A DNA stretch of 60,581 nt, the filler included, from Nemertoderma westbladi (taxonomy: Eukaryota; Animalia; Xenacoelomorpha), in assembly GCA_032718475.1 (NCBI GenBank). It is 3 parts of 3 records of this genome, joined end to end, with 100 filler letters (N's around TTAATTAATTAA, not from the genome) between each part and the next. Parts side by side here need not be neighbours in the genome. Positions count along the whole stretch, not along the records: positions 19,313 to 45,754 come from JAUCBJ010002575.1; 2 more parts are not named here. One strand, given 5' to 3'. The position numbers and the translations under genes are program-made. The notes under the pieces were generated by a model. The model was not told the origin of the DNA. It did no database searches and worked only from the letters and a program-made list of their open reading frames with translations. Shown here in pieces: positions 14,920 through 45,754 of the stretch. Each line of letters opens with the position of its first letter. Position 1 is the first letter of the stretch.

Positions 14920-15258
14920 GGGTGAGTACAAAACAAACACCCAAAGACTAAAGACCTGAACAAAACCCATGTGTTAACTTTCGTTTATTGTTTTGGTTCC
15001 TACAATATGCCTCTGTATCCTGCCCCTTTAAAAGGCAATGGGACCTAACGCTCTTTGGTAACTGTACGAAACAAAGAGGTACTGTAAAGTCGCGTTAGGT
15101 TCCATGTCCCAATGAGCGTTAGGTCCCATTTAAATGAGCAGGTTAATAAAGAAGCAGGTTACAGAGGCGCGTTTGGGGAAGCAAAACAATAAACAAAGTC
15201 AACACATGTTACAAGATTATGCAGGTTACTTAATTGGGTCTTTGTTTTGTACTCACCC
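14920..15258. mobile_element. Palindromic MITE in intron 1 of the TGF-beta-like gene
   Basis: Ends GGGTGAGTACAAAACAAA / TTTGTTTTGTACTCACCC; internal mirrored AATGGGACCTAACGCTC / GAGCGTTAGGTCCCATT. Confidence 0.8.
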
Positions 15259-16039: not shown

Positions 16040-16223
16040 GATATTATGCTACACAGTCTGGGGATTGAGTCGTCGGAATTGAATGTCACCGCGGATAAAA
16101 TTGCGAAAATAAAGAGTTTGGATGTGATAAAAAAGCTAGAGAGGGACATTGATCGCGATAACACAGAGGCAATGAACAACTCGAACAAATTAGATAGTGT
16201 CATAATTATTGTTGGTACAACAA
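16040..16223 (+). CDS. TGF-beta-like precursor, exon 2
   Basis: TTTCCAG acceptor; DIMLHSLGI (straitjacket helix, compare QILSKLRL); donor A|GTAAGT, phase 1. Confidence 0.78.
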
Positions 16224-16367
16224 GTAAGTAAATAACATTTAGTTATTTACAATAATAACCAAACATAACATTACTGTATAATACAATTTAATTTATCATT
16301 TAATTCGTCTGTATTATAATTTACTAAATGATCCCCGTAATATCAAACCTTTTCTTCGCGTTTTCAG

Positions 16368-16510
16368 TACCCGAAACCGATAACCAATGTTGTCACTTCA
16401 ACATGGGGGGAGAGATGCCGGAAAAAATCGCGAACGCCATGGTTAATGTGTTCGTTCGCGATAATAGCGGACCTGAAGATGTTAAAAGGGACCAAAAATA
16501 TGTATTAAAG
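16368..16510 (+). CDS. TGF-beta-like precursor, exon 3
   Basis: TTTTCAG acceptor; QCCHFNM..KIANAMVNVFVR (compare myostatin KCCFFKF..KVVKAQLWIYLR); donor AAG|GTAAAT, phase 0. Confidence 0.8.
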
Positions 16511-17417
16511 GTAAATAAATGCAATATTATGCGGCTAATTATTAATTAATACTTAAATGTAATGGCCTGTAATGTAACTGTAATGACCTGCAAAGCAGAG
16601 GCGGCTTTGTTCTAGTGTCAAGCTTGGGGGAACCAATGAGACACTTCCAATGTTATATAGTGTCTGGTTGACGATGTGTGCATTGTACTTGACACAATGT
16701 ACCCGACACATTTAACAAAATTTAAGAAATTCCACAAAAATATTTTCTGTTACTTTTGTTGTTACTTTTTTTCCCTAAGTAAAAAAGTGAAACTTTTTCT
16801 CCCGATTTTGGGGTATATTCGAGGGAATAAGTAACAATTTAAGAATAAAGTAGTTTACTTTTATTTTAATTCAAATTACAAGAATTGAATTTGAAAAAAT
16901 ATTATATAAGAAGATTTAAAATTAAACGACTAACATTATATTAATTAAAATTAATATAATTCAAATGTAAACCATTAGACGGGATAATAAATGAAAAGGA
17001 TGAAGGTGAAGGTTAACACAATGTTGAGCAATTCTAGTCCTTTTCATTCATTTTCATTATATTAATTAATTAGTTGTTTTTGTGTAATTTATATTTTATA
17101 TTTGCTGAGCACATAAACACTAACAGTACTACTGGTTAATCAGTGGGTGGTAAAGTAGTAGTAGGCCGTTAGTATTAGTAGTGGTAATATATTCTATGGC
17201 GCCTGGCGCCATACAAAATTTGATTGGTGGCGCCGGCAGTGCCATCAGCAAATTTCCAAAAAAATACTGCTTAAATTTGTTACACTTAATTTTGTAAGAC
17301 ATCACTAGGGGTTGAACCAGTGCTATACGGTAAAGTTTAAAGCTAACATTCAACTATGTAGTGTATTGGGTAATACTTCTTACTTTACAAGTAAATAAAG
17401 TGCTATTTACGTTGCAG

Positions 17418-17532
17418 CTGTTTCTCAGAAATGGAACTAAAGTTGCAGAAGCTGTCTTCAACGTTCCTGAAATATCGGCGCCTGGAGCGGTTGCCAATTT
17501 CAACATGAACGCTACAAATTTCAAGCGTCAAA
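17418..17532 (+). CDS. TGF-beta-like precursor, exon 4
   Basis: TTGCAG acceptor; open frame LFLRNGTKVAEAVFNV..NFKRQ; donor A|GTAAGT; phases fit both neighbours. Confidence 0.75.
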
Positions 17533-17840
17533 GTAAGTGAAACCGCAGTCATTCTAAAAGTTCCATATTATTTTTCTAACTTGTCTCAAAAAGTTTCATG
17601 AGGTTTTCACATACCGCGAAGCAAGAACCACCAATAGGTGAAAATTCCCTCAAAGAGTGACCGAAGATTGATGGTACATATTACCTGTGATATTGGCAGT
17701 GTGATTAAATCCATACACAACATTTTTTACAGCATATTTAAGTGCTAAAGTATGTATTTCAATATAATTTCATATATTGTTTGTCTCTTATACAACATAT
17801 TTTTGTCGTCATCTATTAAATTATTTATTTTTTAATAAAG

Positions 17841-18019
17841 TTAAGAAATGGGGTAGTCTTAACCACGATAATTCCGGCATAATAGTTGACGTGCGTCTTG
17901 GGAGTGAATGTGCCACTGGGATCGATGGAGTACTGAGATGTAATGTAACAACCGGCCCAGACCTTACTGATTGCGGGCCAGAGTGGCCAGACCAACCAAG
18001 TTCTGGTCGCAATTGTTCG
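17841..18019 (+). CDS. TGF-beta-like precursor, exon 5 (gene incomplete)
   Basis: IKKWGSLNHDNSGIIVDV (compare LQNWLKQPESNLGIEIK); donor TCG|GTAAGT; no cystine-knot exon before the gap. Confidence 0.75.
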
Positions 18020-18420
18020 GTAAGTAATCAGTCCGACAGGTCATCAGTCTCATTTAACGTATAGTTGATTAAATTTAAATTATAATAAAGCTGAATAGAA
18101 TCTATTTACTTGACTACAATATTTAATACTGTAGTTGCTATTGAACTAGTTCGAAAATTAGTCTATTTATTTCCTAATTGTAAATATTAAACTTAATAAA
18201 TTCTCATCGCGTAGCGTAAGTTCTGTCTTCATCTCTTTAACTCAACAATTTATTCAGATTTGAAACTACACCGCGCGCATACAGTATTCTGATGGCGCTG
18301 TACTGTCATGGCATCTGCTAGGGTCAAAATCCTATATTTTACTCTTCAATATATTAATATTGCGAGTAATAATATCAATAATATTACATCATTGTGCAAT
18401 ATTATTACACGTTAATTCAA

Positions 18421-19212
18421 TACTACTACTACTAGGTCGAGCGAACTCGGACAGTGGAAATGAGATCCTTCCAGGCTTCCCGATTCTCAATAGTTGTCGC
18501 AATTTCGTTTCTCCCAAGTTCAGTATCCCTTTCAAGTTGATCTATATATGTTATGGCCGGTCGTCCACGACTACGCTTTCCAAGAGTTGGTTGCCAGAAA
18601 AGTACATCTGGTATGACCTCGTCTTTACTTCGCCAGCAGTGCCCACTGAATCTTAATCTGCGTTCACGGAGGGTGGTTGATACAGGTGGTATTGTACCAT
18701 AAAGCTCGGCGTTTGTCATGTGTTGTCTCCAGCTGATGTTTAGGGCTGCCCTTAGTAGTCTTGTGTAGCAACCATCAATTCGTTGTTCAAGTGATTTAGT
18801 CAGTGTCCAGGTCTCACCCCCGTATAAAAATACACTTTCCACTGTGGCTCGAAAGAACTTGGTCTTCAGGTGCCTGGAGAGATCTGATTTCCAGATGGTA
18901 TCCATTTTTGATAGAGCTGCCCAAGCCTTTGCTTTCCTAACTTCTATGTCCTTTTTGCTACTCTCTATCCATGATCCAAGGTACTAGAAGTCATCGACCT
19001 TCCTTAGTTGATTATTATCAATGGTTGTCAAGTTTCCATCAACATTAAAGGTCATGAATTCGGTCTTGGTAGCATTTATATGCAATCCAACCACCTTAGC
19101 AGCCCTCTATAATTTATTTAGTAGAAGCTGTGCATCTGTTAGCGTATTAGAGAGCAGGGCGATGTCATCCGCAAAGTCGGTGTCTGCGACTGTAGTTGCC
19201 GGATATCTTCTA
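18421..19212 (-). mobile_element. 3' part of LINE family A (RT C-terminus), truncated by the gap
   Basis: DFADDIAL, ERRLRFSGHCWR; (TAG)n tail that includes the stop codon; near-identical to 49125-49900. Confidence 0.92.
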
Positions 19213-19312
19213 NNNNNNNNNNNNNNNNNNNNNNNNNNNNNNNNNNNNNNNNNNNNTTAATTAATTAANNNNNNNNNNNNNNNNNNNNNNNNNNNNNNNN
19301 NNNNNNNNNNNN
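19213..19312. other. Artificial 100-nt linker (N44-TTAATTAATTAA-N44)
   Basis: N-runs around a 12-mer giving stops in all six frames. Confidence 0.97.
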
Positions 19313-19720: not shown

Positions 19721-19845
19721 AACAATTTCCCTGATCCCAATCCCGTGATCAATACATACTATACTGGGTTCTAGCTACATATTTTATGGGATGTAAATTT
19801 AATTACGAAAACAACTATATTAATTAGGCATATTCGTGCAATTAA

Positions 19846-20138
19846 TTAATTGAGAGCAGTTCTATTATATTCTAATAATTGTTCATCATTAGGGTATGTT
19901 GCCATGGTTTCTCGATCATGTCGCCTTGGAGCCCGACTGGGCAAATTGGTAGCCAACCAGCTGTCTTTGTAATCAATTGGCGAGAAGCAGGTGTTAGGAA
20001 TCAGGCTATCGTCGCTCATTGGTATTCGCCTGCCTAACTTCACGCGGAACATATTGGTTGGTTGGTTGAGCGCGTCTCGGCGGTAGTTGATTGGCCGGTC
20101 AAACATGTAGCGACCACCTTGGAATGCATTAATCACAC
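19846..20138 (-). CDS. Uncharacterised 328-aa protein, coding exon 5 (last)
   Basis: TTTACAG acceptor, phase 1; GVINAFQGGRY..RTALN*. Confidence 0.75.
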
Positions 20139-20282
20139 CTGTAAATGTAACCGGTATGATTTGGACGTATTAAAACCGCTAATGGAAAATTTTAACAAAA
20201 AATGCTGGTGGCTGGTGGGGATATGGGTGGGACATTTCTGGAACATTCCACATATTGTAATTTATAAAGAACAATAATTAAC

Positions 20283-20529
20283 CGTGGTTTCCTGGAGTAA
20301 CCAGCTTCCTGTATGCAACAGTGTGACCTCTTTGCGGTCCGACTCCACCTTCTAGGACCCAGGTTGGATGTCTGCGGAACGGAGGCAGGTTTATGTCGTT
20401 CACAGTGCCTTCAAGGTCCCGGATTCTCATACCAGTAGCTATCGTATGGGGGCGCTGCAGAATGGGTGCAGTCAGAGGGTTGTAAGAACGGTTTCGAACT
20501 GCTGCAGCATCAGCGTGGGGTTTCAATGA
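20283..20529 (-). CDS. Uncharacterised 328-aa protein, coding exon 4
   Basis: TTTTTCAG acceptor, phase 0; SLKPHADAAAVR..PGNH; donor G|GTTAAT, phase 1. Confidence 0.75.
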
Positions 20530-20895
20530 CTGAAAAATATTATATATTTACCAATATAATATATTATATACACCCCCAGTCGGGGTAAATGGGGGACGGG
20601 TTGTTAAAATTAATAAATTAAATAAATAATAAAATAAAAATCAATATTTACCAATATTTACCAATATAATATGTAATAAAATATAAATAGAATATTACCA
20701 TAAAATACATAGATAGCATGACATCACGTACGGTACCGATTATATATATATACTTAAACTTAATAATATTTGTACTATTTTTATGGAATTTCTTCGAATT
20801 TCCATGTAAATCTTTCTTTCTTGTCATCCATTCATACACTTTGTTCACACGTTTGATTTGCGCTGAAAAGTGATTGAGTGAATTAATATCCATAT

Positions 20896-23800
20896 GACTC
20901 ACCTTACACAATGCGCGGAGTTCCACGGTATAGTTGTCTACCAGTTGTGACTCACCCTACACAATGCGCGGAGTTCCACGGTATAGTTGTCTACCAGTTG
21001 TGACTCACCTTATACAATGCGCGGAGTTCCACGGTATAGTTGTCTACCAGTTGTGACTCACCTTATACAATGCGAGGAGTTCCACGGTATAGTTGTCTAC
21101 CAGTTGTGACTCACCTTATACAATGCGAGGAGTTCCACGGTATAGTTGTCTACCAGTTGTGACTCACCTTATACAATGCACGGAGTTCCGCGGTATAGTT
21201 GTCTACCAGTTGTGTCTCACCTTATACAATGCGCGGAGTTCCACGGTATAGTTGTCTACCAGTTGTGACTCACCTTATACAATGCGAGGAGTTCCACGGT
21301 ATAGTTGTCTACCAGTTGTGACTCACCTTATACAATGCGCTGAGTTCCACGGTATAGTTGTCTACCAGTTGTGACTCACCTTATACAATGCGCGGAGTTC
21401 CACGGTATAGTTGTCAACCAGTTGTGACTCACCTTATACAATGCGCGGAGTTCCACGGTATAGTTGTCTACCAGTTGTGACTCACCCTATACAATGCACG
21501 GAGTTCCACAGTATAGTTGTCTACCAGTGGTGACTCACCTTATACAATGCGCGGAGTTCCACGGTATAGTTGTCAACCAGTTGTGACTCACCCTACACAA
21601 TGCACGGAGTTCCACGGTATAGTTGTCTACCAGTTGTGACTCACCCTATACAATGCGCGGAGTTCCACGGTATAGTTGTCTACCAGTTGTGACTCACCCT
21701 ATACAATGCACGGAGTTCCACGGTATAGTTGTCTACCAGTTGTGACTCACCTTATACAATGCACGGAGTTCCACGGTATAGTTGTCAACCAGTTGTGACT
21801 CACCCTATACAATGCGAGGAGTTCCACGGTATAGTTGTCAACCAGTTGTGACTCACCTTATACAATGCACGGAGTTCCACGGTATAGTTGTCTACCAGTT
21901 GTGACTCACCTTATACAATGCGCGGAGTTCCACGGTATAGTTGTCTACCAGTTGTGACTCACCTTATACAATGCGCGGAGTTCCTCGGTATAGTTGTCTA
22001 CCAGTTGTGACTCACCTTATACAATGCGAGGAGTTCCACGGTATAGTTGTCTACCAGTTGTGACTCACCTTATACAATGCACGGAGTTCCACGGTATAGT
22101 TGTCTACCAGTTGTGACTCACCTTATACAATGCGCGGAGTTCCACGGTATAGTTGTCTACCAGTTGTGACTCACCTTATACAATGCGCGGAGTTCCACGG
22201 TATAGTTGTCTACCAGTTGTGACTCACCTTATACAATGCACGGAGTTCCACGGTATAGTTGTCTACCAGTTGTGACTCACCCTATACAATGCACGGAGTT
22301 CCACGGTATAGTTGTCTACCAGTTGTGACTCACCTTATACAATGCGCGGAGTTCCACGGTATAGTTGTCTACCAGTTGTGACTCACCCTATACAATGCGC
22401 GGAGTTCCACGGTATAGTTGTCTACCAGTTGTGACTCACCCTATACAATGCACGGAGTTCCACGGTATAGTTGTCTACCAGTTGTGACTCACCCTATACA
22501 ATGCACGGAGTTCCACGGTATAGTTGTCTACCAGTTGTGACTCACCTTATACAATGCACGGAGTTCCACGGTATAGTTGTCTACCAGTTGTGACTCACCC
22601 TATACAATGCACGGAGTTCCACGGTATAGTTGTCTACCAGTTGTGACTCACCTTATACAATGCGCGGAGTTCCACGGTATAGTTGTCTACCAGTTGTGAC
22701 TCACCTTATACAATGCGCGGAGTTCCACGGTATAGTTGTCTACCAGTTGTGACTCACCTTATACAATGCGCGGAGTTCCACGGTATAGTTGTCTACCAGT
22801 TGTGACTCACCTTATACAATGCACGGAGTTCCACGGTATAGTTGTCTACCAGTTGTGACTCACCTTATACAATGCGCGGAGTTCCACGGTATAGTTGTCT
22901 ACCAGTTGTGACTCACCCTATACAATGCGCGGAGTTCCACGGTATAGTTGTCTACCAGTTGTGACTCACCCTATACAATGCACGGAGTTCCACGGTATAG
23001 TTGTCTACCAGTTGTGACTCACCCTATACAATGCACGGAGTTCCACGGTATAGTTGTCTACCAGTTGTGACTCACCTTATACAATGCACGGAGTTCCACG
23101 GTATAGTTGTCTACCAGTTGTGACTCACCTTATACAATGCGCGGAGTTCCACGGTATAGTTGTCTACCAGTTGTGACTCACCTTATACAATGCGCGGAGT
23201 TCCACGGTATAGTTGTCTACCAGTTGTGACTCACCTTATACAATGCACGGAGTTCCACGGTATAGTTGTCTACCAGTTGTGACTCACCTTATACAATGCG
23301 CGGAGTTCCACGGTATAGTTGTCTACCAGTTGTGACTCACCCTATACAATGCGCGGAGTTCCACGGTATAGTTGTCTACCAGTTGTGACTCACCTTATAC
23401 AATGCACGGAGTTCCACGGTATAGTTGTCTACCAGTTGTGACTCACCTTATACAATGCGCGGAGTTCCACGGTATAGTTGTCTACCAGTTGTGACTCACC
23501 TTATACAATGCGCGGAGTTCCACGGTATAGTTGTCTACCAGTTGTGACTCACCTTATACAATGCGCGGAGTTCCACGGTATAGTTGTCTACCAGTTGTGA
23601 CTCACCTTATACAATGCACGGAGTTCCACGGTATAGTTGTCTACCAGTTGTGACTCACCTTATACAATGCACGGAGTTCCACGGTATAGTTGTCTACCAG
23701 TTGTGACTCACCCTATACAATGCACGGAGTTCCACGGTATAGTTGTCTACCAGTTGTGACTCACCTTATACAATGCGCGGAGTTCCACGGTATAGTTGTC

Positions 23801-26800
23801 TACCAGTTGTGACTCACCTTATACAATGCGCGGAGTTCCACGGTATAGTTGTCTACCAGTTGTGACTCACCTTATACAATGCGCGGAGTTCCACGGTATA
23901 GTTGTCTACCAGTTGTGACTCACCCTATACAATGCACGGAGTTCCACGGTATAGTTGTCTACCAGTTGTGACTCACCTTATACAATGCGAGGAGTTCCAC
24001 GGTATAGTTGTCTACCAGTTGTGACTCACCTTATACAATGCGAGGAGTTCCACGGTATAGTTGTCTACCAGTTGTGACTCACCTTATACAATGCACGGAG
24101 TTCCACGGTATAGTTGTCTACCAGTTGTGACTCACCTTATACAATGCACGGAGTTCCACGGTATAGTTGTCTACCAGTTGTGACTCACCTTATACAATGC
24201 ACGGAGTTCCACGGTATAGTTGTCTACCAGTTGTGACTCACCTTATACAATGCACGGAGTTCCACGGTATAGTTGTCTACCAGTTGTGACTCACCTTATA
24301 CAATGCGCGGAGTTCCACGGTATAGTTGTCTACCAGTTGTGACTCACCTTATACAATGCGACGGAGTTCCACGGTATAGTTGTCTACCAGTTGTGACTCA
24401 CCTTATACAATGCACGGAGTTCCACGGTATAGTTGTCTACCAGTTGTGACTCACCTTATACAATGCACGGAGTTCCACGGTATAGTTGTCTACCAGTTGT
24501 GACTCACCTTATACAATGCACGGAGTTCCACGGTATAGTTGTCTACCAGTTGTGACTCACCTTATACAATGCACGGAGTTCCACGGTATAGTTGTCTACC
24601 AGTTGTGACTCACCTTATACAATGCACGGAGTTCCACGGTATAGTTGTCTACCAGTTGTGACTCACCTTATACAATGCGCGGAGTTCCACGGTATAGTTG
24701 TCTACCAGTTGTGACTCACCTTATACAATGCACGGAGTTCCACGGTATAGTTGTCTACCAGTTGTGACTCACCTTATACAATGCACGGAGTTCCACGGTA
24801 TAGTTGTCTACCAGTTGTGACTCACCTTATACAATGCACGGAGTTCCACGGTATAGTTGTCTACCAGTTGTGACTCACCTTATACAATGCACGGAGTTCC
24901 ACGGTATAGTTGTCTACCAGTTGTGACTCACCTTATACAATGCACGGAGTTCCACGGTATAGTTGTCTACCAGTTGTGACTCACCTTATACAATGCGCGG
25001 AGTTCCACGGTATAGTTGTCTACCAGTTGTGACTCACCTTATACAATGCACGGAGTTCCACGGTATAGTTGTCTACCAGTTGTGACTCACCTTATACAAT
25101 GCGCGGAGTTCCACGGTATAGTTGTCTACCAGTTGTGACTCACCTTATACAATGCGCGGAGTTCCACGGTATAGTTGTCTACCAGTTGTGACTCACCTTA
25201 TACAATGCACGGAGTTCCACGGTATAGTTGTCTACCAGTTGTGACTCACCTTATACAATGCGCGGAGTTCCACGGTATAGTTGTCTACCAGTTGTGACTC
25301 ACCCTATACAATGCACGGAGTTCCACGGTATAGTTGTCTACCAGTTGTGACTCACCCTATACAATGCGAGGAGTTCCACGGTATAGTTGTCAACCAGTTG
25401 TGACTCACCCTATACAATGCACGGAGTTCCACGGTATAGTTGTCTACCAGTTGTGACTCACCCTATACAATGCGAGGAGTTCCACGGTATAGTTGTCTAC
25501 CAGTTGTGACTCACCTTATACAATGCACGGAGTTCCACGGTATAGTTGTCTACCAGTTGTGACTCACCTTATACAATGCGCGGAGTTCCACGGTATAGTT
25601 GTCTACCAGTTGTGACTCACCTTATACAATGCACGGAGTTCCACGGTATAGTTGTCTACCAGTTGTGACTCACCTTATACAATGCACGGAGTTCCACGGT
25701 ATAGTTGTCTACCAGTTGTGACTCACCTTATACAATGCACGGAGTTCCACGGTATAGTTGTCTACCAGTTGTGACTCACCTTATACAATGCGCGGAGTTC
25801 CACGGTATAGTTGTCTACCAGTTGTGACTCACCCTATACAATGCGACGGAGTTCCACGGTATAGTTGTCTACCAGTTGTGACTCACCTTATACAATGCGC
25901 GGAGTTCCACGGTATAGTTGTCTACCAGTTGTGACTCACCCTATACAATGCACGGAGTTCCACGGTATAGTTGTCTACCAGTTGTGACTCACCTTATACA
26001 ATGCGCGGAGTTCCACGGTATAGTTGTCTACCAGTTGTGACTCACCCTATACAATGCGAGGAGTTCCACGGTATAGTTGTCTACCAGTTGTGACTCACCT
26101 TATACAATGCACGGAGTTCCACGGTATAGTTGTCTACCAGTTGTGACTCACCTTATACAATGCGAGGAGTTCCACGGTATAGTTGTCTACCAGTTGTGAC
26201 TCACCTTATACAATGCGCGGAGTTCCACGGTATAGTTGTCTACCAGTTGTGACTCACCCTATACAATGCACGGAGTTCCACGGTATAGTTGTCTACCAGT
26301 TGTGACTCACCTTATACAATGCACGGAGTTCCACGGTATAGTTGTCTACCAGTTGTGACTCACCTTATACAATGCGAGGAGTTCCACGGTATAGTTGTCT
26401 ACCAGTTGTGACTCACCTTATACAATGCACGGAGTTCCACGGTATAGTTGTCTACCAGTTGTGACTCACCTTATACAATGCACGGAGTTCCACGGTATAG
26501 TTGTCTACCAGTTGTGACTCACCTTATACAATGCACGGAGTTCCACGGTATAGTTGTCTACCAGTTGTGACTCACCTTATACAATGCGAGGAGTTCCACG
26601 GTATAGTTGTCTACCAGTTGTGACTCACCTTATACAATGCACGGAGTTCCACGGTATAGTTGTCTACCAGTTGTGACTCACCTTATACAATGCACGGAGT
26701 TCCACGGTATAGTTGTCTACCAGTTGTGACTCACCTTATACAATGCACGGAGTTCCACGGTATAGTTGTCTACCAGTTGTGACTCACCTTATACAATGCA

Positions 26801-29800
26801 CGGAGTTCCACGGTATAGTTGTCTACCAGTTGTGACTCACCTTATACAATGCACGGAGTTCCACGGTATAGTTGTCTACCAGTTGTGACTCACCTTATAC
26901 AATGCACGGAGTTCCACGGTATAGTTGTCTACCAGTTGTGACTCACCTTATACAATGCACGGAGTTCCACGGTATAGTTGTCTACCAGTTGTGACTCACC
27001 TTATACAATGCACGGAGTTCCACGGTATAGTTGTCTACCAGTTGTGACTCACCTTATACAATGCGAGGAGTTCCACGGTATAGTTGTCTACCAGTTGTGA
27101 CTCACCTTATACAATGCACGGAGTTCCACGGTATAGTTGTCTACCAGTTGTGACTCACCTTATACAATGCACGGAGTTCCACGGTATAGTTGTCTACCAG
27201 TTGTGACTCACCTTATACAATGCACGGAGTTCCACGGTATAGTTGTCTACCAGTTGTGACTCACCTTATACAATGCACGGAGTTCCACGGTATAGTTGTC
27301 TACTAGTTGTGACTCACCTTATACAATGCGAGGAGTTCCACGGTATAGTTGTCTACCAGTTGTGACTCACCCTATACAATGCACGGAGTTCCACGGTATA
27401 GTTGTCTACCAGTTGTGACTCACCTTATACAATGCGAGGAGTTCCACGGTATAGTTGTCTACCAGTTGTGACTCACCTTATACAATGCGCGGAGTTCCAC
27501 GGTATAGTTGTCAACCAGTTGTGACTCACCCTATACAATGCACGGAGTTCCACGGTATAGTTGTCTACCAGTTGTGACTCACCTTATACAATGCGCGGAG
27601 TTCCACGGTATAGTTGTCAACCAGTTGTGACTCACCCTATACAATGCGAGGAGTTCCGCGGTATAGTTGTCAACCAGTTGTGACTCACCTTATACAATGC
27701 ACGGAGTTCCACGGTATAGTTGTCTACCGGTTGTGACTCACCCTATACAATGCGCGGAGTTCCACGGTATAGTTGTCTACCAGTTGTGTCTCACCCTATA
27801 CAATGCGAGGAGTTCCACGGTATAGTTGTCAACCAGTTGTGACTCACCTTATACAATGCACGGAGTTCCACGGTATAGTTGTCTACCAGTTGTGACTCAC
27901 CTTATACAATGCGCGGAGTTCCACGGTATAGTTGTCTACCAGTTGTGACTCATCCTATACAATGCACGGAGTTCCACGGTATAGTTGTCTACCAGTTGTG
28001 ACTCACCCTATACAATGCGAGGAGTTCCACGGTATAGTTGTCTACCAGTTGTGACTCACCCTATACAATGCGAGGAGTTCCACGGTATAGTTGTCTACCA
28101 GTTGTGACTCACCTTATACAATGCGCGGAGTTCCACGGTATAGTTGTCTACCAGTTGTGACTCACCTTATACAATGCGCGGAGTTCCTCGGTATAGTTGT
28201 CTACCAGTTGTGACTCACCTTATACAATGCGCGGAGTTCCTCGGTATAGTTGTCTACCAGTTGTGACTCACCTTATACAATGCGCGGAGTTCCACGGTAT
28301 AGTTGTCTACCAGTTGTGACTCACCCTATACAATGCGAGGAGTTCCACGGTATAGTTGTCTACCAGTTGTGACTCACCCTATACAATGCGAGGAGTTCCA
28401 CGGTATAGTTGTCTACCAGTTGTGACTCACCTTATACAATGCGCGGAGTTCCACGGTATAGTTGTCTACCAGTTGTGACTCACCTTATACAATGCGCGGA
28501 GTTCCTCGGTATAGTTGTCTACCAGTTGTGACTCACCTTATACAATGCGCGGAGTTCCTCGGTATAGTTGTCTACCAGTTGTGACTCACCTTATACAATG
28601 CGCGGAGTTCCACGGTATAGTTGTCTACCAGTTGTGACTCACCTTATACAATGCGCGGAGTTCCTCGGTATAGTTGTCTACCAGTTGTGACTCACCTTAT
28701 ACAATGCGCGGAGTTCCTCGGTATAGTTGTCTACCAGTTGTGACTCACCTTATACAATGCGCGGAGTTCCACGGTATAGTTGTCTACCAGTTGTGACTCA
28801 CCTTATACAATGCACGGAGTTCCACGGTATAGTTGTCTACTAGTTGTGACTCACCTTATACAATGCGCGGAGTTCCACGGTATAGTTGTCTACCAGTTGT
28901 GACTCACCTTATACAATGCGCGGAGTTCCACGGTATAGTTGTCTACCAGTTGTGACTCACCCTATACAATGCACGGAGTTCCACGGTATAGTTGTCTACC
29001 AGTTGTGACTCACCTTATACAATGCGCGGAGTTCCTCGGTATAGTTGTCTACCAGTTGTGACTCACCTTATACAATGCGCGGAGTTCCACGGTATAGTTG
29101 TCTACCAGTTGTGACTCACCCTATACAATGCGCGGAGTTCCACGGTATAGTTGTCTACCAGTTGTGACTCACCCTATACAATGCACGGAGTTCCACGGTA
29201 TAGTTGTCTACCAGTTGTGACTCACCTTATACAATGCGCGGAGTTCCTCGGTATAGTTGTCTACCAGTTGTGACTCACCTTATACAATGCGCGGAGTTCC
29301 ACGGTATAGTTGTCTACCAGTTGTGACTCACCTTATACAATGCGCGGAGTTCCACGGTATAGTTGTCTACCAGTTGTGACTCACCCTATACAATGCACGG
29401 AGTTCCACGGTATAGTTGTCTACCAGTTGTGACTCACCTTATACAATGCGCGGAGTTCCTCGGTATAGTTGTCTACCAGTTGTGACTCACCTTATACAAT
29501 GCGCGGAGTTCCACGGTATAGTTGTCTACCAGTTGTGACTCACCTTATACAATGCGCGGAGTTCCTCGGTATAGTTGTCTACCAGTTGTGACTCACCTTA
29601 TACAATGCGCGGAGTTCCTCGGTATAGTTGTCTACCAGTTGTGACTCACCTTATACAATGCGCGGAGTTCCACGGTATAGTTGTCTACCAGTTGTGACTC
29701 ACCTTATACAATGCACGGAGTTCCACGGTATAGTTGTCTACTAGTTGTGACTCACCTTATACAATGCGCGGAGTTCCACGGTATAGTTGTCTACCAGTTG

Positions 29801-32800
29801 TGACTCACCTTATACAATGCGCGGAGTTCCACGGTATAGTTGTCTACCAGTTGTGACTCACCCTATACAATGCGAGGAGTTCCGCGGTATAGTTGTCTAC
29901 CAGTTGTGACTCACCTTATACAATGCGCGGAGTTCCTCGGTATAGTTGTCTACCAGTTGTGACTCACCTTATACAATGCGCGGAGTTCCTCGGTATAGTT
30001 GTCTACCAGTTGTGACTCACCTTATACAATGCGCGGAGTTCCTCGGTATAGTTGTCTACCAGTTGTGACTCACCTTATACAATGCGCGGAGTTCCACGGT
30101 ATAGTTGTCTACCAGTTGTGACTCACCTTATACAATGCACGGAGTTCCACGGTATAGTTGTCTACTAGTTGTGACTCACCTTATACAATGCGCGGAGTTC
30201 CTCGGTATAGTTGTCTACCAGTTGTGACTCACCTTATACAATGCGCGGAGTTCCACGGTATAGTTGTCTACCAGTTGTGACTCACCTTATACAATGCGCG
30301 GAGTTCCTCGGTATAGTTGTCTACCAGTTGTGACTCACCTTATACAATGCGCGGAGTTCCTCGGTATAGTTGTCTACCAGTTGTGACTCACCTTATACAA
30401 TGCGCGGAGTTCCACGGTATAGTTGTCTACCAGTTGTGACTCACCTTATACAATGCACGGAGTTCCACGGTATAGTTGTCTACTAGTTGTGACTCACCTT
30501 ATACAATGCGCGGAGTTCCACGGTATAGTTGTCTACCAGTTGTGACTCACCTTATACAATGCGCGGAGTTCCACGGTATAGTTGTCTACCAGTTGTGACT
30601 CACCCTATACAATGCACGGAGTTCCTCGGTATAGTTGTCTACCAGTTGTGACTCACCTTATACAATGCGCGGAGTTCCACGGTATAGTTGTCTACCAGTT
30701 GTGACTCACCTTATACAATGCGCGGAGTTCCACGGTATAGTTGTCTACCAGTTGTGACTCACCCTATACAATGCACGGAGTTCCACGGTATAGTTGTCTA
30801 CCAGTTGTGACTCACCTTATACAATGCGCGGAGTTCCTCGGTATAGTTGTCTACCAGTTGTGACTCACCTTATACAATGCGCGGAGTTCCACGGTATAGT
30901 TGTCTACCAGTTGTGACTCACCTTATACAATGCACGGAGTTCCACGGTATAGTTGTCTACTAGTTGTGACTCACCTTATACAATGCGCGGAGTTCCACGG
31001 TATAGTTGTCTACCAGTTGTGACTCACCTTATACAATGCGCGGAGTTCCACGGTATAGTTGTCTACCAGTTGTGACTCACCTTATACAATGCGCGGACTT
31101 CCACGGTATAGTTGTCTACCAGTTGTGACTCACCTTATACAATGCGCGGAGTTCCACGGTATAGTTGTCTACCAGTTGTGACTCACCCTATACAATGCAC
31201 GGAGTTCCACGGTATAGTTGTCTACCAGTTGTGACTCACCTTATACAATGCGCGGAGTTCCACGGTATAGTTGTCTACCAGTTGTGACTCACCCTATACA
31301 ATGCGCGGAGTTCCACGGTATAGTTGTCTACCAGTTGTGACTCACCCTATACAATGCACGGAGTTCCACGGTATAGTTGTCTACCAGTTGTGACTCACCT
31401 TATACAATGCGCGGAGTTCCTCGGTATAGTTGTCTACCAGTTGTGACTCACCTTATACAATGCGCGGAGTTCCACGGTATAGTTGTCTACCAGTTGTGAC
31501 TCACCCTATACAATGCACGGAGTTCCACGGTATAGTTGTCTACCAGTTGTGACTCACCCTATACAATGCACGGAGTTCCACGGTATAGTTGTCTACCAGT
31601 TGTGACTCACCTTATACAATGCGCGGAGTTCCTCGGTATAGTTGTCTACCAGTTGTGACTCACCCTATACAATGCGCGGAGTTCCACGGTATAGTTGTCT
31701 ACCAGTTGTGACTCACCTTATACAATGCGCGGAGTTCCACGGTATAGTTGTCTACCAGTTGTGACTCACCCTATACAATGCGCGGAGTTCCACGGTATAG
31801 TTGTCTACCAGTTGTGACTCACCCTATACAATGCACGGAGTTCCACGGTATAGTTGTCTACCAGTTGTGACTCACCTTATACAATGCGCGGAGTTCCACG
31901 GTATAGTTGTCTACCAGTTGTGACTCACCCTATACAATGCGCGGAGTTCCACGGTATAGTTGTCTACCAGTTGTGACTCACCCTATACAATGCACGGAGT
32001 TCCACGGTATAGTTGTCTACCAGTTGTGACTCACCCTATACAATGCGCGGAGTTCCACGGTATAGTTGTCTACCAGTTGTGACTCACCCTATACAATGCA
32101 CGGAGTTCCACGGTATAGTTGTCTACCAGTTGTGACTCACCCTATACAATGCACGGAGTTCCACGGTATAGTTGTCTACCAGTTGTGACTCACCCTATAC
32201 AATGCACGGAGTTCCACGGTATAGTTGTCTACCAGTTGTGACTCACCTTATACAATGCGCGGAGTTCCTCGGTATAGTTGTCTACCAGTTGTGACTCACC
32301 CTATACAATGCGCGGAGTTCCACGGTATAGTTGTCTACCAGTTGTGACTCACCCTATACAATGCGCGGAGTTCCACGGTATAGTTGTCTACCAGTTGTGA
32401 CTCACCCTATACAATGCACGGAGTTCCACGGTATAGTTGTCTACCAGTTGTGACTCACCCTATACAATGCACGGAGTTCCACGGTATAGTTGTCTACCAG
32501 TTGTGACTCACCCTATACAATGCACGGAGTTCCACGGTATAGTTGTCTACCAGTTGTGACTCACCCTATACAATGCACGGAGTTCCACGGTCTAGTTGTC
32601 TACCAGTTGTGACTCACCCTATACAATGCACGGAGTTCCACGGTATAGTTGTCTACCAGTTGTGACTCACCTTATACAATGCGCGGAGTTCCTCGGTATA
32701 GTTGTCTACCAGTTGTGTCTCACCTTATACAATGCGCGGAGTTCCACGGTATAGTTGTCAACCAGTTGTGACTCACCCTATACAATGCGAGGAGTTCCGC

Positions 32801-33246
32801 GGTATAGTTGTCTACCAGTTGTGACTCACCTTATACAATGCACGGAGTTCCACTGTATAGTTGTCTACCAGTTGTGACTCACCTTATACAATGCGCGGAG
32901 TTCCACGGTATAGTTGTCTACCAGTTGTGACTCACCTTATACAATGCGCGGAGTTCCACGGTATAGTTGTCTACCAGTTGTGACTCACCCTATACAATGC
33001 ACGGAGTTCCACGGTATAGTTGTCTACCAGTTGTGACTCACCTTATACAATGCGCGGAGTTCCTCGGTATAGTTGTCTACCAGTTGTGACTCACCTTATA
33101 CAATGCGCGGAGTTCCACGGTATAGTTGTCTACCAGTTGTGACTCACCCTATACAATGCACGGAGTTCCACGGTATAGTTGTCTACCAGTTGTGACTCAC
33201 CTTATACAATGCGCGGAGTTCCACGGTATAGTTGTCTACCAGTTGT
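20896..33246 (-). repeat. 53-bp satellite, 233 copies, made of the exon-3 3' end plus its 5' splice site
   Basis: Minus-strand unit ACAACTGGTAGACAACTATACCGTGGAACTCCGCGCATTGTATAAG|GTGAGTC; 12351 bp = 233 x 53 plus two 1-nt insertions; the first copy is the end of exon 33349-33201. Confidence 0.97.
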
Positions 33247-33349
33247 TGGTAATATTCTTGAGATGCGATATCCATTCGCTCAGCTTCCTTTATGTTGACC
33301 TTGAGAGTGTCCATTATGTGAATAAGATCTTTGTATTTGGAAATGAGAA
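33201..33349 (-). CDS. Uncharacterised 328-aa protein, coding exon 3 (helical/coiled-coil-like)
   Basis: TTTTGCAG acceptor, phase 1; VLISKYKDLIHIMDTLKVNIKEAERMDIASQEYYQQLVDNYTVELRALYK; donor AAG|GTGAGT, phase 0, matching exon 4. Confidence 0.8.
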
Positions 33350-33798
33350 CTGCAAAACATGGGCGACTGATTCTTAATTCTTACAATATATATGGTTATA
33401 ACATGGATTGGAATACAACAGGTTGGTTTGTCCCAGCGAGGAAGTATTATACCGCTGCCTGAGATTTCTTAATCTCAATACAATAGTACGGTGCAGATTC
33501 AATATAAAATAATATAAGAAAGAAAGATAGGAAATAAAAATATAATAAAGGTAAAATACAATTCAATATTGAAATTGAAATAAATTGTTATAGTGTTCAT
33601 CCTTGGGAATTAGTTACAGACAACAGCCAAGATAGAGGAGCCTTTAATCTATAATCAAAATATATCAATATGTATACGATTTAATTAGAAACAACGTAAT
33701 CAATTCATTGTATAAAATATAGAAACTGATATAATTTAGACGCACTAAGCCCATCCAAATGACATACAAGCTGGAATATTTCATTGGCCATAAAACTA

Positions 33799-34611: not shown

Positions 34612-34783
34612 CTTTAGTTTCATGTTCAAATTCTATGCGAAAGAAGTGGCGTTTATAATTATTAGTAGTTTCCCAATACGCTCGATCCGAGGAAATCTGG
34701 TCCAAGGCGCAAGCGAGATCGCGCAGGACAGCGAGGAGTTTTGGATCGTTTGGGTAGCGGTCGTCTTGGATCAGGGATTCTAT
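34612..34783 (-). CDS. Uncharacterised 328-aa protein, coding exon 2
   Basis: TTTGCTGCAG acceptor, phase 0; IESLIQDDRY..EHETK; donor AAG|GTAATT, phase 1. Confidence 0.78.
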
Positions 34784-35026: not shown

Positions 35027-35152
35027 CTTTTGCTTGGCCGCGGAGGCTTTAAAGTGAAAGTAATTCTCAGGCAGCGCATGGTCCACCAGGCTGTTACTGT
35101 TATTGCTGTGGGATATACCAACTGTCTGCACAACTCTCTCGTTAGCTGTCAT
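35027..35152 (-). CDS. Uncharacterised 328-aa protein, coding exon 1
   Basis: ATG at 35152; MTANERVVQ..AAKQK; donor AAG|GTAAGT, phase 0; the five exons sum to 987 nt with consistent phases. Confidence 0.72.
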
Positions 35153-35279
35153 AGTGAGGCTGGGGTTCTTTAGTATAATTTGTGATTGTAATTAATCGCA
35201 ACGTTTCCAATATATCTAATTGTTTATACTAAATTATTAAGTACGAATTAAGAATAACTATTTCTTTTATATTAACATT

Positions 35280-38384: not shown

Positions 38385-38542
38385 AACATCATTTCTTGTG
38401 AGAATAAATAGCCAACCAATAAATAAGCAAGGCCTTCTTTATAAATCAGTTTTACTTCAATCAGTTTAGTTAATAATTTATTAGTTTCTCAAGTCGTATT
38501 GTTATTTACTGCTTTATTAGAAGAAAGGACGCTGGACAAGAA

Positions 38543-38617
38543 ATGGCTGCGATATTTTCTCCTGCATCACCGGATGATATATTGTTTAACCGGAACGGAT
38601 GTACTAGTTGTTTGCAG
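38543..38617 (+). CDS. Uncharacterised plus-strand gene, first coding exon
   Basis: MAAIFSPASPDDILFNRNGCTSCLQ; strong donor CAG|GTAAGT, phase 0. Confidence 0.55.
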
Positions 38618-38699
38618 GTAAGTAAACAGGTTGGGCTGTGAATAAATAATATTTTTTTTAACGATTGATTTTTAAGGAATTAACATCCTAACTTCTGGG

Positions 38700-41528: not shown

Positions 41529-41673
41529 GGAATAAATGATGTGAATCACCCATCGGTAAGATTAACTGAAACTCTAATTGAAATATTGAATCGTCTAGGG
41601 AAGGTAATAGGCGTATGTCGGGAGGAAATCAGAAGTAACATTGAATACCAGACTGATGGACCGGTGGTTAGAT
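41529..41673 (+). CDS. Uncharacterised plus-strand gene, second coding exon
   Basis: TTTTCCTTTAG acceptor; the only open frame (GINDVNHPSVRL..EYQTDGPVVR) is in phase with exon 1; donor AT|GTAAGT; a competing donor CG|GTAAGA exists at 41556. Confidence 0.55.
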
Positions 41674-44600
41674 GTAAGTATATGGAGGGGGGGACATTGA
41701 ATACCAGACTGATGGACCGGTGGTTAGATGTAAGTATATGGAGGGGGGAACACTGAATACCAGACTGATGGACCGGTGGTTAGATGTAAGTATATGGAGG
41801 GAGGGACATTGAATACCAGACTGATGGACCGGTGGTTAGATGTAAGTATATGGAGGGAGGGACATTGAATACCAGACTGATGGACCGGTGGTTAGATGTA
41901 AGTATATGGAGGGGGGACATTGAATACCAGACTGATGGACCGGTGGTTAGATGTAAGTATATGGAGGGGGGAACATTGAATACCAGACTGATGGACCGGT
42001 GGTTAGATGTAAGTATATGGAGGGGGGACATTGAATACCAGACTGATGGACCGGTGGTTAGATGTAAGTATATGGAGCGGGGAACATTGAATACCAGACT
42101 GACTGATGGACCGGTGGTTAGATGTAAGTATATGGAGGGGGGAACATTGAATACCAGACTGATGGACCGGTGGTTAGATGTAAGTATATGGAGGGGGGGA
42201 CATTGAATACCAGACTGATGGACCGGTGGTTAGATGTAAGTATATGGAGCGGGGAACATTGAATACCAGACTGATGGACCGGTGGTTAGATGTAAGTATA
42301 TGGAGGGGGGACATTGAATACCAGACTGACTGATGGACCGGTGGTTAGATGTAAGTATATGGAGCGGGGAACATTGAATACCAGACTGATGGACCGGTGG
42401 TTAGATGTAAGTATATGGAGGGGGGAACATTGAATACCAGACTGACTGATGGACCGGTGGTTAGATGTAAGTATATGGAGGGGGGAACATTGAATACCAG
42501 ACTGACTGATGGACCGGTGGTTAGATGTAAGTATATGGAGGGGGGAACATTGAATACCAGACTGACTGATGGACCGGTGGTTAGATGTAAGTATATGGAG
42601 GGGGGAACATTGAATACCAGACTGACTGATGGACCGGTGGTTAGATGTAAGTATATGGAGGGGGGAACATTGAATACCAGACTGATGGACCGGTGGTTAG
42701 ATGTAAGTATATGGAGGGGGGAACATTGAATACCAGACTGACTGATGGACCGGTGGTTAGATGTAAGTATATGGAGGGGGGAACATTGAATACCAGACTG
42801 ATGGACCGGTGGTTAGATGTAAGTATATGGAGGGGGGGACATTGAATACCAGACTGACTGATGGACCGGTGGTTAGATGTAAGTATATGGAGGGGGAACA
42901 TTGAATACCAGACTGATGGACCGGTGGTTAGATGTAAGTATATGGAGGGGGGAACATTGAATACCAGACTGACTGATGGACCGGTGGTTAGATGTAAGTA
43001 TATGGAGGGGGGAACATTGAATACCAGACTGACTGATGGACCGGTGGTTAGATGTAAGTATATGGAGGGGGGAACATTGAATACCAGACTGATGATGGAC
43101 CGGTGGTTAGATGTAAGTATATGGAGGGGGGAACATTGAATACCAGACTGACTGATGGACCGGTGGTTAGATGTAAGTATATGGAGGGGGGAACATTGAA
43201 TACCAGACTGACTGATGGACCGGTGGTTAGATGTAAGTATATGGAGGGGGGAACATTGAATACCAGACTGACTGATGGACCGGTGGTTAGATGTAAGTAT
43301 ATGGAGGGGGGAACATTGAATACCAGACTGATGGACCGGTGGTTAGATGTAAGTATATGGAGGGGGGAACATTGAATACCAGACTGACTGATGGACCGGT
43401 GGTTAGATGTAAGTATATGGAGGGGGGACATTGAATACCAGACTGACTGATGACCGGTGGTTAGATGTAAGTATATGGAGGGGGAACACTGAATACCAGA
43501 CTGATGGACCGGTGGTTAGATGTAAGTATATGGAGGGGGGAACATTGAATACCAGACTGATGGACCGGTGGTTAGATGTAAGTATATGGAGGGGGGAACA
43601 TTGAATACCAGACTGATGGACCGGTGGTTAGATGTAAGTATATGGAGGGGGGAACACTGAATACCAGACTGATGGACCGGTGGTTAGATGTAAGTATATG
43701 GAGGGGGGACATTGAATACCAGACTGACTGATGGACCGGTGGTTAGATGTAAGTATATGGAGGGGGGACATTGAATACCAGACTGATGGACCGGTGGTTA
43801 GATGTAAGTATATGGAGGGGGGAACATTGAATACCAGACTGATGGACCGGTGGTTAGATGTAAGTATATGGAGGGGGGAACATTGAATACCAGACTGATG
43901 GACCGGTGGTTAGATGTAAGTATATGGAGGGGGGAACACTGAATACCAGACTGATGGACCGGTGGTTAGATGTAAGTATATGGAGGGGGGACATTGAATA
44001 CCAGACTGATGGACCGGTGGTTAGATGTAAGTATATGGAGGGGGGACATTGAATACCAGACTGATGGACCGGTGGTTAGATGTAAGTATATGGAGGGAGG
44101 GACATTGAATACCAGACTGATGGACCGGTGGTTAGATGTAAGTATATGGAGGGGGGACATTGAATACCAGACTGATGGACCGGTGGTTAGATGTAAGTAT
44201 ATGGAGCGGGGGACATTGAATACCAGACTGATGGACCGGTGGTTAGATGTAAGTATATGGAGGGGGGGACATTGAATACCAGACTGATGGACCGGTGGTT
44301 AGATGTAAGTATATGGAGCGGGGGACACTGAATACCAGACTGATGGACCGGTGGTTAGATGTAAGTATATGGAGGGGGGAACATTGAATACCAGACTGAT
44401 GGACCGGTGGTTAGATGTAAGTATATGGAGCGGGGAACATTGAATACCAGACTGATGGACCGGTGGTTAGATGTAAGTATATGGAGGGGGGAACATTGAA
44501 TACCAGACTGATGGACCGGTGGTTAGATGTAAGTATATGGAGCGGGGAACATTGAATACCAGACTGACTGATGGACCGGTGGTTAGATGTAAGTATATGG

Positions 44601-45754
44601 AGGGGGGAACATTGAATACCAGACTGACTGATGGACCGGTGGTTAGATGTAAGTATATGGAGGGGGGAACATTGAATACCAGACTGACTGATGGACCGGT
44701 GGTTAGATGTAAGTATATGGAGGGGGGAACATTGAATACCAGACTGATGTGACCGGTGGTTAGATGTAAGTATATGGAGGGGGGAACATTGAATACCAGA
44801 CTGACTGATGGACCGGTGGTTAGATGTAAGTATATGGAGGGGGGAACATTGAATACCAGACTGATGGACCGGTGGTTAGATGTAAGTATATGGAGGGGGG
44901 AACATTGAATACCAGACTGACTGATGGACCGGTGGTTAGATGTAAGTATATGGAGGGGGGAACATTGAATACCAGACTGATGGACCGGTGGTTAGATGTA
45001 AGTATATGGAGGGGGGGACATGTGGACCGGTGGTTAGATGTAAGTATATGGAGGGGGGAACATTGAATACCATGACTGATGGACCGGTGGTTAGATGTAA
45101 GTATATGGAGGGGGAACATTGAATACCAGACTGATGGACCGGTGGTTAGATGTAAGTATATGGAGGGGGGACATTGAATACCATGACTGATGGACCGGTG
45201 GTTAGATGTAAGTATATGGAGGGGGGAACATTGAATACCAGACTGACTGATGGACCGGTGGTTAGATGTAAGTATATGGAGCGGGGAACATTGAATACCA
45301 GACTGATGGACCGGTGGTTAGATGTAAGTATATGGAGGGGGGACATTGAATACCAGACTGACTGATGGACCAGTGCGGTGGTTAGATGTAAGTATATGGA
45401 GGGGGGAACATTGAATACCAGACTGACTGATGGACCGGTGGTTAGATGTAAGTATATGGAGGGGGGAACATTGAATACCAGACTGAATGATGGACCGGTG
45501 GTTAGATGTAAGTATATGGAGGGGGGAACATTGAATACCAGACTGACTGATGGACCGGTGGTTAGATGTAAGTATATGGAGGGGGGAACATTGAATACCA
45601 GACTGACTGATGGACCGGTGGTTAGATGTAAGTATATGGAGGGGGGAACATTGAATACCAGACTGATGGACCGGTGGTTAGATGTAAGTATATGGAGGGG
45701 GGGGGGGGGGGGGGGGGGGGCACTGAATACCAGACTGATGGACCGGTGGTTAGA
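41638..45754 (+). repeat. 55-60-bp satellite, about 70 copies, made of the exon 3' end plus 5' splice site
   Basis: Unit ACATTGAATACCAGACT(GACT)GATGGACCGGTGGTTAGAT|GTAAGTATATGGAGGGGGGA; the first copy is continuous with unique exon sequence; runs into the gap. Confidence 0.95.

Follow-up and report, generated by a model that had tools for sequence, protein, structure and literature searches.

Tandem repeats that copy an exon boundary together with its splice signal have been described in human and lancelet genes. Human F7 carries a 37-bp VNTR of 5-9 copies in intron 7 (Borensztajn et al. 2006, PMC1557585), and arrays of 10-26 copies in 6-16, CBS, LMNB2, and PDGF are cited in the same report. 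A 25-bp VNTR lies in intron 18 of human ABCA7 (De Roeck et al. 2018, PMC5954066). In amphioxus, "mirage" minisatellites are found in Adh3, the globins BflGb6 and BflGb9, PGBD5, and troponin C (PMC3087553, PMC3902484). According to the available parts of these reports, splicing at such arrays takes place exclusively or nearly exclusively at the first donor (PMC1557585, PMC3087553, PMC5954066). The architecture described below is already published for all of these genes.

The window analyzed here is a 60,581-nucleotide stretch of Nemertoderma westbladi DNA (GCA_032718475.1). It contains a gene of five exons and 328 codons (gene 1), the third intron of which is occupied almost entirely by a tandem array (array 1; Table 1). 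The unit joins GTGAGTC to the final 46 nt of exon 33349-33201. These 46 nt close exon 3 and at the same time form the exonic portion of unit 1, and the last unit continues into unique intron sequence. Both boundaries had been proposed in the initial annotation and were confirmed. Its count of 233 copies was reproduced by Tandem Repeats Finder (20895-33246, period 53, 233.0 copies, 97% matches) and by cutting the array at the donor motif, which yielded 231 units of 53 nt and 2 units of 54 nt. Exon/donor copies make up 12,305 of the 12,671 nt of intron 3 (97.1%, in line with the earlier figure of about 97%), and 366 nt of unique sequence remain without them. The units had a mean identity of 98.0% to the consensus, to which the first unit corresponds exactly. 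A 21-nt piece of the unit matched the window 233 times and gave 0 matches in each of 100 shuffles, and a script search for the unit returned no match elsewhere in the window.

Table 1. Features of genes 1 and 2 and their arrays, in window coordinates
Feature	Position	Strand	Evidence or remark
Gene 1 exon 1	35027..35259	-	X4 contig piece; junction 34783^35027 with CT..AC ends; reading frame
Gene 1 exon 2, 172 nt	34612..34783	-	X4 piece; junction 33349^34612 in X4 and X5
Gene 1 exon 3, 149 nt	33201..33349	-	X4 and X5 pieces; open frame
Donor 1, GTGAGTC	33194..33200	-	Site joined in assembled RNA of X4 and X5
TAG in unit 2, ending translation after any later donor	33183..33185	-
Array 1	20896..33246	-	233 tandem 53-bp units, exon end plus donor
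Unique A+T-rich end of intron 3 with acceptor	20530..20895	-	GC 0.25
Gene 1 exon 4, 247 nt	20283..20529	-	X4 and X5 pieces 20281-20530; junction over 144 nt with CT..AC ends
Gene 1 exon 5	19760..20138	-	Stop 19846-19848; X4 3' UTR extends past 19760
Gene 2 exon 1	38448..38617	+	X4 piece 38448-38615, contiguous with next piece; ATG at 38543
Gene 2 exon 2	41529..41673	+	X4 piece 41527-41673, 0 other letters
Array 2	41637..45754	+	About 56-bp units, exon end plus donor

The donors of array 1 read AAG|GTGAGT in 165 units, AGG|GTGAGT in 64, AAG|GTGAGA in 2, AGG|GTGAGA in 1, and AGG|ATGAGT in 1, so that GTGAGT is present in 229 of the 233 units. Common variants were clustered along the array (4 of 6 with p<0.03 in a permutation test), and words of 4, 5, 6, and 8 units recurred more often than in any of 2000 shuffles. 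With its clustered variants and repeated multi-unit words, array 1 shows concerted evolution.

To establish which donor is joined in RNA, assembled contigs of sequencing runs were used. Five of eight runs (X1 to X5) were compared with the window; X6, X7, and X8 shared no words with it. X4 and X5 were treated as RNA, though no run is on record as such, because their contigs lack introns, the joins falling at GT-AG ends, and leave the unique intron parts uncovered. A spliced X4 contig of 1531 nt (depth 259) contained all five exons of gene 1, with the ATG at 35152 and the 5' end of exon 1 set by the limit of the contig. An X5 contig of 923 nt (depth 22) contained exons 2-5. In both, which derive from two runs and two studies, unique exon 3 sequence was followed by one unit and then by exon 4. 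The earlier claims that 33349-33201 is an exon and that the first donor is chosen were thereby borne out: this third exon is spliced into and out of, and the end of unit 1 is joined to exon 4. Donor 1 is used in the assembled RNA of both RNA-like runs, minor forms being invisible in contigs. No read-through contig was detected in X4 or X5; a single contig per run lay on 19760-20955, and this contig accounted for all of the depth in the bin 33194-33477. Likewise, none of the X4 and X5 contigs compared with the window, from which rare forms are dropped, skipped exon 4. NMD would additionally conceal use of later donors, and contigs provide no measure of the share of donor 1. A processed retrocopy as the source of the X4 and X5 junctions was disfavored, as none of gene 1's exon junctions occurred in the DNA runs X1, X2, and X3.

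Homology searches were performed with single exons of 25-107 amino acids, for which blank results are weak. No homologue was found among 113 candidates for gene 1 exon 4, 16 candidates for exon 2, or, for exon 5, 1.84 billion representatives. In the Atlas, no score for exon 4 reached 0.8, and Pfam returned no family for any of the five exons. For exon 2 of the neighboring gene 2, none of 5 candidates was a homologue and no Pfam family was assigned. Rfam gave no match in 19313-45754.

We consider it probable (about 0.8) that array 1 goes back to a single duplication and subsequent repeat turnover, with the first donor alone used in assembled RNA, and that the array is tolerated, not functional. 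A 53-bp duplication across the donor would not have been removed by selection because the upstream copy and the mRNA were left intact. Slippage or unequal exchange would then have amplified and homogenized the duplicated unit. The position of the most upstream donor, not its strength, would commit the spliceosome to it, through exon definition on the 149-nt exon and because RNA is made 5'-to-3', as has been tested in human F7. Read-through past donor 1 adds VSHNW and then reaches a TAG. According to the initial annotation, each of the 232 other donors would add a stop. The predicted product was indeed the same at all 232 positions (154 amino acids, compared with 328 from donor 1), but unit 100 reads ATGAGT, and GT is kept at 231 of the 232 donors downstream of donor 1. 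This retention is explained by homogenization and would also be explained by selection. A stop codon commonly elicits NMD when the last exon junction follows it by more than 50-55 nt, a rule that may not hold in this animal. With donor 2, the stop precedes the exon 4/5 junction by 282 nt, beyond this distance. Rare transcripts made with later donors would carry their stop at least 282 nt ahead of this last junction; NMD would probably remove them, which would lower the cost further. Tests for selection on the array, based on 15 variants and of little power, showed that synonymous changes were not overrepresented (5 of 15, compared with an expected share of 32/138, p=0.26) and that variable sites made up a similar share of the donor 9-mer (3 of 9) and of the remaining unit (12 of 44, p=0.70). 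Among the four roles proposed initially, the neutral one fits best.

Two explanations that would give the array a different status appear very improbable. One of them holds that array 1 was inflated during assembly, or that it belongs to a dispersed satellite of which the first copy became exonic. Both 54-nt units hold two alleles of one variable site, which resembles a consensus-calling error. In X1, the unit contigs had a depth of 573 with flanks near 6, and in X2 depths of 1709 and 969 with flanks of 33-35. These ratios of about 80-140 fall short of 233, contig depth being no copy number. The long array is nevertheless real, because the unit DNA contigs are roughly 80-fold or more deeper than the flanks; the depth supports about a hundred or more copies, and the figure of 233 rests on one assembly. 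Moreover, the flanks of the unit among the loose ends listed were the next unit and exon 3, with no third flank; the unit carries on the open frame of exon 3 and ends at the used donor; and the variants lie in ordered blocks. The other explanation, of similarly slight probability, regards the array as a selected landing pad for U1 snRNP or as a scaffold for stepwise (recursive) splicing that aids removal of a long intron or protects it. The predicted U1 duplexes of -10.7 and -10.1 kcal/mol at the 231 downstream GT donors, about equal to the gene's best donor, would suit a landing pad. The donor is conserved no better than the rest of the unit, however, which gives no sign of selection, and a variant predicted to weaken U1 pairing slightly has spread to 66 of the 233 units. 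Array 1 and the tail also lack AATAAA or ATTAAA for U1 to mask. Recursive splicing sites have the form YAG|GT with an upstream pyrimidine tract, and in nascent RNA recursive splicing shows as sawtooth coverage or as splice intermediates. AG|GT, initially ascribed to the units, was found in 167 of 233 (as AAG|GT), not in every one, and speaks in favor of this explanation; YAG|GT was found in 0 of 233. The pyrimidine content before the unit AG (6 of 11) equaled that of the weakest real acceptor (6 of 11) and was non-discriminating. For both the pad and the scaffold, the length of the intron to be aided is due to the array itself.

Somewhat less remote, though still unlikely, is a role as a length-dependent modifier resembling that in ABCA7, in which the array is not adaptive by origin and its length alters output. 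Output could change through slight use of donor 2 or 3 coupled with NMD, through reduced speed of elongation, or through skipping of exon 4. Regulated unproductive splicing with NMD entails an isoform that is made, regulated, and conserved. The premature stop at all 232 later positions would fit such a modifier, and a minor leak to later donors may be coupled to NMD. Use of donor 2 in human ABCA7 is about 2% and rises under cycloheximide, and exon skipping and reduced expression go with greater VNTR length (PMC5954066); the 6-16 and CBS arrays use two further sites (cited in PMC1557585). As reported in the available part of the ABCA7 study, however, the donor-2 isoform is unchanged with VNTR length (PMC5954066), and the lack of read-through and exon-4-skipping contigs in X4 and X5 argues weakly in the same direction. 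Since a longer donor-bearing array lowers expression and increases skipping of the following exon in ABCA7, the term neutral is unproven for array 1.

A tolerated array may still affect the protein. Exon 3 ends with AGG (Arg) in the RNA of X4 and X5 and with AAG (Lys) in the first unit of the window. The contig pieces over exon 3 (33203-33349) differ from the window by one letter, and unit 2 of the window has both the AGG end and the one substitution besides it. The AGG end occurs in 66 of the 233 units; other common variants would yield Val>Glu and Arg>Leu. The discrepancy between RNA and window indicates that array turnover may rewrite the exon end. A one-unit slip at the 5' end would place a variant unit first and change the last 15 codons and the donor strength. 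A-to-I editing was judged less likely, because 66 of 233 units carry G in the genome and the contigs differ elsewhere by changes other than A to G. A 53-nt intron in register within units 1-2 was also rejected as the source of AGG; the only AG|GT or AG|GC of the consensus unit is the donor. If turnover changes the coding copy, the intronic repeat would be a local source of protein variation and the array of greater importance. A narrow literature search, by which absence from print is not shown, found no report of array variants entering a coding unit.

Gene 2, which lies head-to-head with gene 1, has its own donor array with a sequence unrelated to array 1. The end of its exon 2 is the exonic portion of the first unit of array 2, and the X4 contig departs from the window exactly at the first GT of this array, so that here, too, the first donor is used. 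Array 2 is interrupted by an assembly gap and has at least 71 donors, all 71 reading GAT|GTAAGT, a form favored by the search motif. Two further arrays, of 42 bp (55252-56186) and 61 bp (10221-10676), contain splice-like motifs; from sequence alone, no exon boundary was found at their ends. That this genome is prone to exon-end arrays, and that they form a reservoir that rewrites coding exons, is a tentative proposal, which we hold to be possible but doubtful. The findings would carry greater weight if such arrays were frequent genome-wide; no genome-wide invertebrate survey of them was found in a narrow literature search, which does not show absence from print.

Array 1 likely belongs to the exon-boundary minisatellites (F7 IVS7 type, or mirage). 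Like them, it has head-to-tail units within 10-160 bp, a real boundary with a repeated splice signal, a main mRNA from the authentic first site, and concerted evolution. A further trait of this type is copy-number polymorphism or somatic instability, on which array 1 offers the contig depth ratios of about 80-140, which differ from 233 without giving a copy number. In F7, as in array 1, the exon/intron boundary lies within the first unit, the donors after it are identical copies, and splicing takes the most upstream one even where sites further downstream are somewhat stronger (PMC1557585). The donor used in the two RNA samples of this study, AGG|GTGAGT, has a predicted U1 pairing slightly below that of the commonest array donor. 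The F7 unit holds 4 exonic bases, whereas that of array 1 holds 46 and copies 15 codons, and copy numbers of 5-9 in F7 and 10-26 in the genes cited there compare with 233 (PMC1557585). Amphioxus mirages likewise consist of tandemly duplicated exon-intron boundaries, of which the genome of this invertebrate has several; normal splicing is unaffected and there is concerted evolution within clusters, but the mirages have 2-7 copies compared with 233 and at least 71 here; the boundary units of BflGb6 escape homogenization, whereas the boundary copy of array 1 equals the consensus (PMC3087553, PMC3902484). In ABCA7, every unit starts with a donor and alleles reach 10,678 bp, or about 427 units, more copies than in array 1 (PMC5954066). 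As described in the available part of that report, its unit is without exon sequence, compared with 46 nt in array 1; donor 2 gives a frameshifted, NMD-sensitive isoform, where the later donors of array 1 give a predicted premature stop; and its length effects on splicing and expression were measured, whereas array 1 is known from sequence and contigs (PMC5954066). Array 1 is a large natural case of first-donor choice: an exon of 149 nt is delimited correctly although 231 near-identical donors are spread across the following 12 kb. The general picture is unchanged, and the F7 result is extended from 5-9 copies to hundreds in a non-model animal.

Tandem Repeats Finder placed array 1, the exon-end and donor repeat in intron 3 of the minus-strand gene (gene 1), at 20895-33246, with a 53-bp unit and 233.0 copies. 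On the minus strand the unit consisted of GTGAGTC preceded by the final 46 nt of exon 33349-33201. Splitting at the donor motif gave 231 units of 53 nt and two of 54 nt; the latter look like consensus errors, since each carries both alleles of one site. Mean identity to the consensus was 98.0%, and unit 1 matched it exactly. A 21-nt piece of the unit had 233 matches within the window, compared with 0 in 100 shuffles, and none in the window beyond the array. These three analyses bear out the tandem array of exon end plus GTGAGTC described in the initial annotation, which occupied 12,305 of the 12,671 bases of intron 3. The 232 further near-identical donors held with one exception: GT was kept at 231 of the 232 sites downstream of donor 1 (the most upstream donor), and unit 100 reads ATGAGT. 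YAG/GT was found in 0 of the 233 units, and neither AATAAA nor ATTAAA occurred in the array or the intron 3 tail.

Exons of the two genes and donor classes of array 1
Feature	Position	Strand	Units	Evidence
Gene 1 exon 1	35259-35027	minus		X4 contig
Gene 1 exon 2	34783-34612	minus		X4 contig
Gene 1 exon 3	33349-33201	minus		X4 contig
Gene 1 exon 4	20529-20283	minus		X4 contig
Gene 1 exon 5	20138 onward	minus		X4 contig
Gene 2 exon	38448-38617	plus
Gene 2 exon	41529-41673	plus
Array 1 donor AAG/GTGAGT			165
Array 1 donor AGG/GTGAGT			64
Array 1 donor AAG/GTGAGA			2
Array 1 donor AGG/GTGAGA			1
Array 1 donor AGG/ATGAGT			1 (unit 100)

Eight sequencing runs were listed, none of them recorded as RNA, and five (X1 to X5) were compared with the window. 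The contigs of X4 and X5, two samples from two studies, behaved as spliced RNA: both skipped the 144-nt and 1262-nt introns of gene 1, and an X4 contig skipped the 243-nt intron, all with plus-strand ends CT..AC. No gene 1 splice joint was found in the stretches compared for each of the DNA runs X1, X2, and X3. A single X4 contig of 1531 nt spanned all five exons, which joined into an open frame of 328 codons, and 33349-33201 is a real exon, as had been proposed. Single-exon queries, which are weak evidence, returned no homologue and no domain for the protein. The X5 contig left exon 5 ahead of its stop codon, at 19890, where there is no splice site, and continued for 209 unrelated letters; it is either chimeric or from an allele with an insertion.

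The X4 and X5 contigs ran from unique exon 3 through 46 nt of one unit into exon 4. One contig per RNA run was placed on 19760-20955. Depth in the bin 33194-33477 was 134.3 (X4) and 11.4 (X5), compared with 134.3 and 11.3 for the spliced contig's share. Because the contigs hold one unit and the spliced contig accounts fully for the bin depth, donor 1 is used by the main gene 1 mRNA; the spliceosome does pick the first donor over the others, as the initial annotation required. Among the X4 and X5 contigs placed on the window, none read through past donor 1; since rare forms are lost from contigs, a minor leak to later donors would be compatible with this result. Any later donor would include the TAG at 33185-33183 and yield 154 residues (232/232), in agreement with the claim that each adds a stop. 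This TAG lies at least 282 nt upstream of the last gene 1 junction, and under the usual rule for premature stops ahead of the last junction, later-donor RNA would likely be an NMD target.

Exon 3 ended in AGG in the X4 and X5 contigs, compared with AAG in unit 1 of the window (position 33202); the aligned pieces end at 33203, and AGG was read from the joint letters. The contigs carried one further substitution within unit positions 1-41. AGG was present in 66 of 233 units. Exactly one change within positions 1-41 was seen in 42 of these, of which 36 carried 34T, like unit 2 of the window. A one-unit slip would convert one exon 3 end to the other (Lys to Arg). A polishing error in the window is an alternative source of the mismatch, and editing as the origin of AGG is less likely; the DNA contigs end 30 nt into the unit, at 33217, too early to phase unit 1. 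In a simple U1 duplex calculation, based on the U1 motif, the AGG and AAG donors scored -10.1 and -10.7 kcal/mol. Since the AGG donor is used in spite of its slightly weaker pairing, position would outrank strength in donor choice, provided that the arrays of the X4 and X5 samples resemble the window's.

In X1 one unit contig had a depth of 573, compared with 5.7-6.2 in the flanks (ratio about 95; 138 once corrected for letters common to 160 of 232 units). In X2 two allelic unit contigs had depths of 1709 and 969, compared with 33-35 at exons 1-3 (ratio about 80-86) and just 4.3 for the one contig at exons 4-5 (ratio 620). Contig depth is no copy number; we take it that array 1 holds at least a hundred or so copies, and depth does not give 233. 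Among the loose contig ends listed at the unit, the flanks were the next unit and exon 3 only. Along the array, four of six common variants were clustered (p 0.0005 to 0.021), with no clustering for the other two (p 0.07 and 0.11). Repeated words of 4, 5, 6, and 8 units numbered 37, 24, 10, and 3, compared with means of 7.1, 1.3, 0.2, and 0 in 2000 shuffles; the best of 200 shuffles also produced a block as long as the array's longest (8 units). These patterns are those of ordinary minisatellite turnover with multi-unit duplication. Selection left no sign in two weak tests. Silent changes made up 5 of the 15 exonic variants (p=0.26), and at the donor 3 of 9 positions varied, compared with 12 of 44 elsewhere in the unit (p=0.70).

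Array 2, in the plus-strand head-to-head neighbor (gene 2), shares this design, with exon end plus donor in units of about 56 bp that extend between 41637 and an assembly gap (45755), in at least 71 copies with GAT/GTAAGT at all 71 donors. An X4 contig departed exactly at its first donor; among the pieces listed, none from X5 matched there. The 70 later donors would lead to a stop in 69 cases and a frame shift in one. Units of the two arrays were unrelated (best local score 9). By a rough estimate, the chance that one of four other arrays spans a donor is 3-6%, which is only suggestive; survivorship may explain the second array, in that a duplication is tolerated when the first donor stays intact. 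Intron 1 of gene 2 contains a LINE-type reverse-transcriptase element (38696-41376, RVT_1 match). Single contigs of X2 and X3 join 38695 directly to 41377 and lack the element, which makes it a polymorphic insertion; its family is highly repeated in both runs.

A single 26.4-kb piece, bounded by two identical spacers (19213-19312 and 45755-45854), carries gene 1 and both arrays; each spacer has 100 bases, with a 12-base A+T palindrome between two runs of 44 N. Elsewhere, a 42-bp array at 55252-56186 has 22 copies that are 99% alike and is open in two frames of the plus strand. It is flanked by an 11-base direct repeat and follows an exon-like stretch near 54963-55056, with an in-frame stop upstream. 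A 61-bp array at 10221-10676 (7.4 copies) has an acceptor-like pyrimidine run plus AG in some units and no open frame beyond the last copy. A G-rich array of 17-18-bp units at 3923-4904 has an extreme GC skew of 0.97. The multi-exon gene predicted at 14616-18020 (plus strand) has a hydrophobic, signal-peptide-like start, and the pieces tried gave no Pfam match that passed a cut-off. Decayed LINE-type copies at 11450-12640, 18432-18983, and 49150-51760 (minus strand) were judged by eye from the sequence and one ORF.

Array 1 is best read as a large addition to the known exon-boundary donor arrays that is most likely tolerated (probability about 0.8). The main rival, an effect of array length on splicing, is improbable; its model is ABCA7, where a donor-bearing VNTR (25-bp unit) has up to about 427 units, donor 2 usage is about 2%, and VNTR length influences how often the next exon is skipped (PMC5954066). 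A tentative and rather doubtful extension is that arrays of this kind are common in the Nemertoderma westbladi genome and supply the coding exon with variants. In human F7, the first unit of a 37-bp VNTR lies over the exon 7 donor and the most upstream site alone is in use. Downstream sites fail to compete with it even when stronger (consensus value up to 91), and are used once it is mutated; the 6-16, CBS, LMNB2, and PDGF arrays are cited in the same paper (PMC1557585). Array 1 resembles F7 in that the first unit spans the donor boundary and the first site is used. The amphioxus "mirages" provide the invertebrate case (PMC3087553, PMC3902484). With F7, the mirages, and ABCA7 as precedents, neither the design nor the size of array 1 is new.
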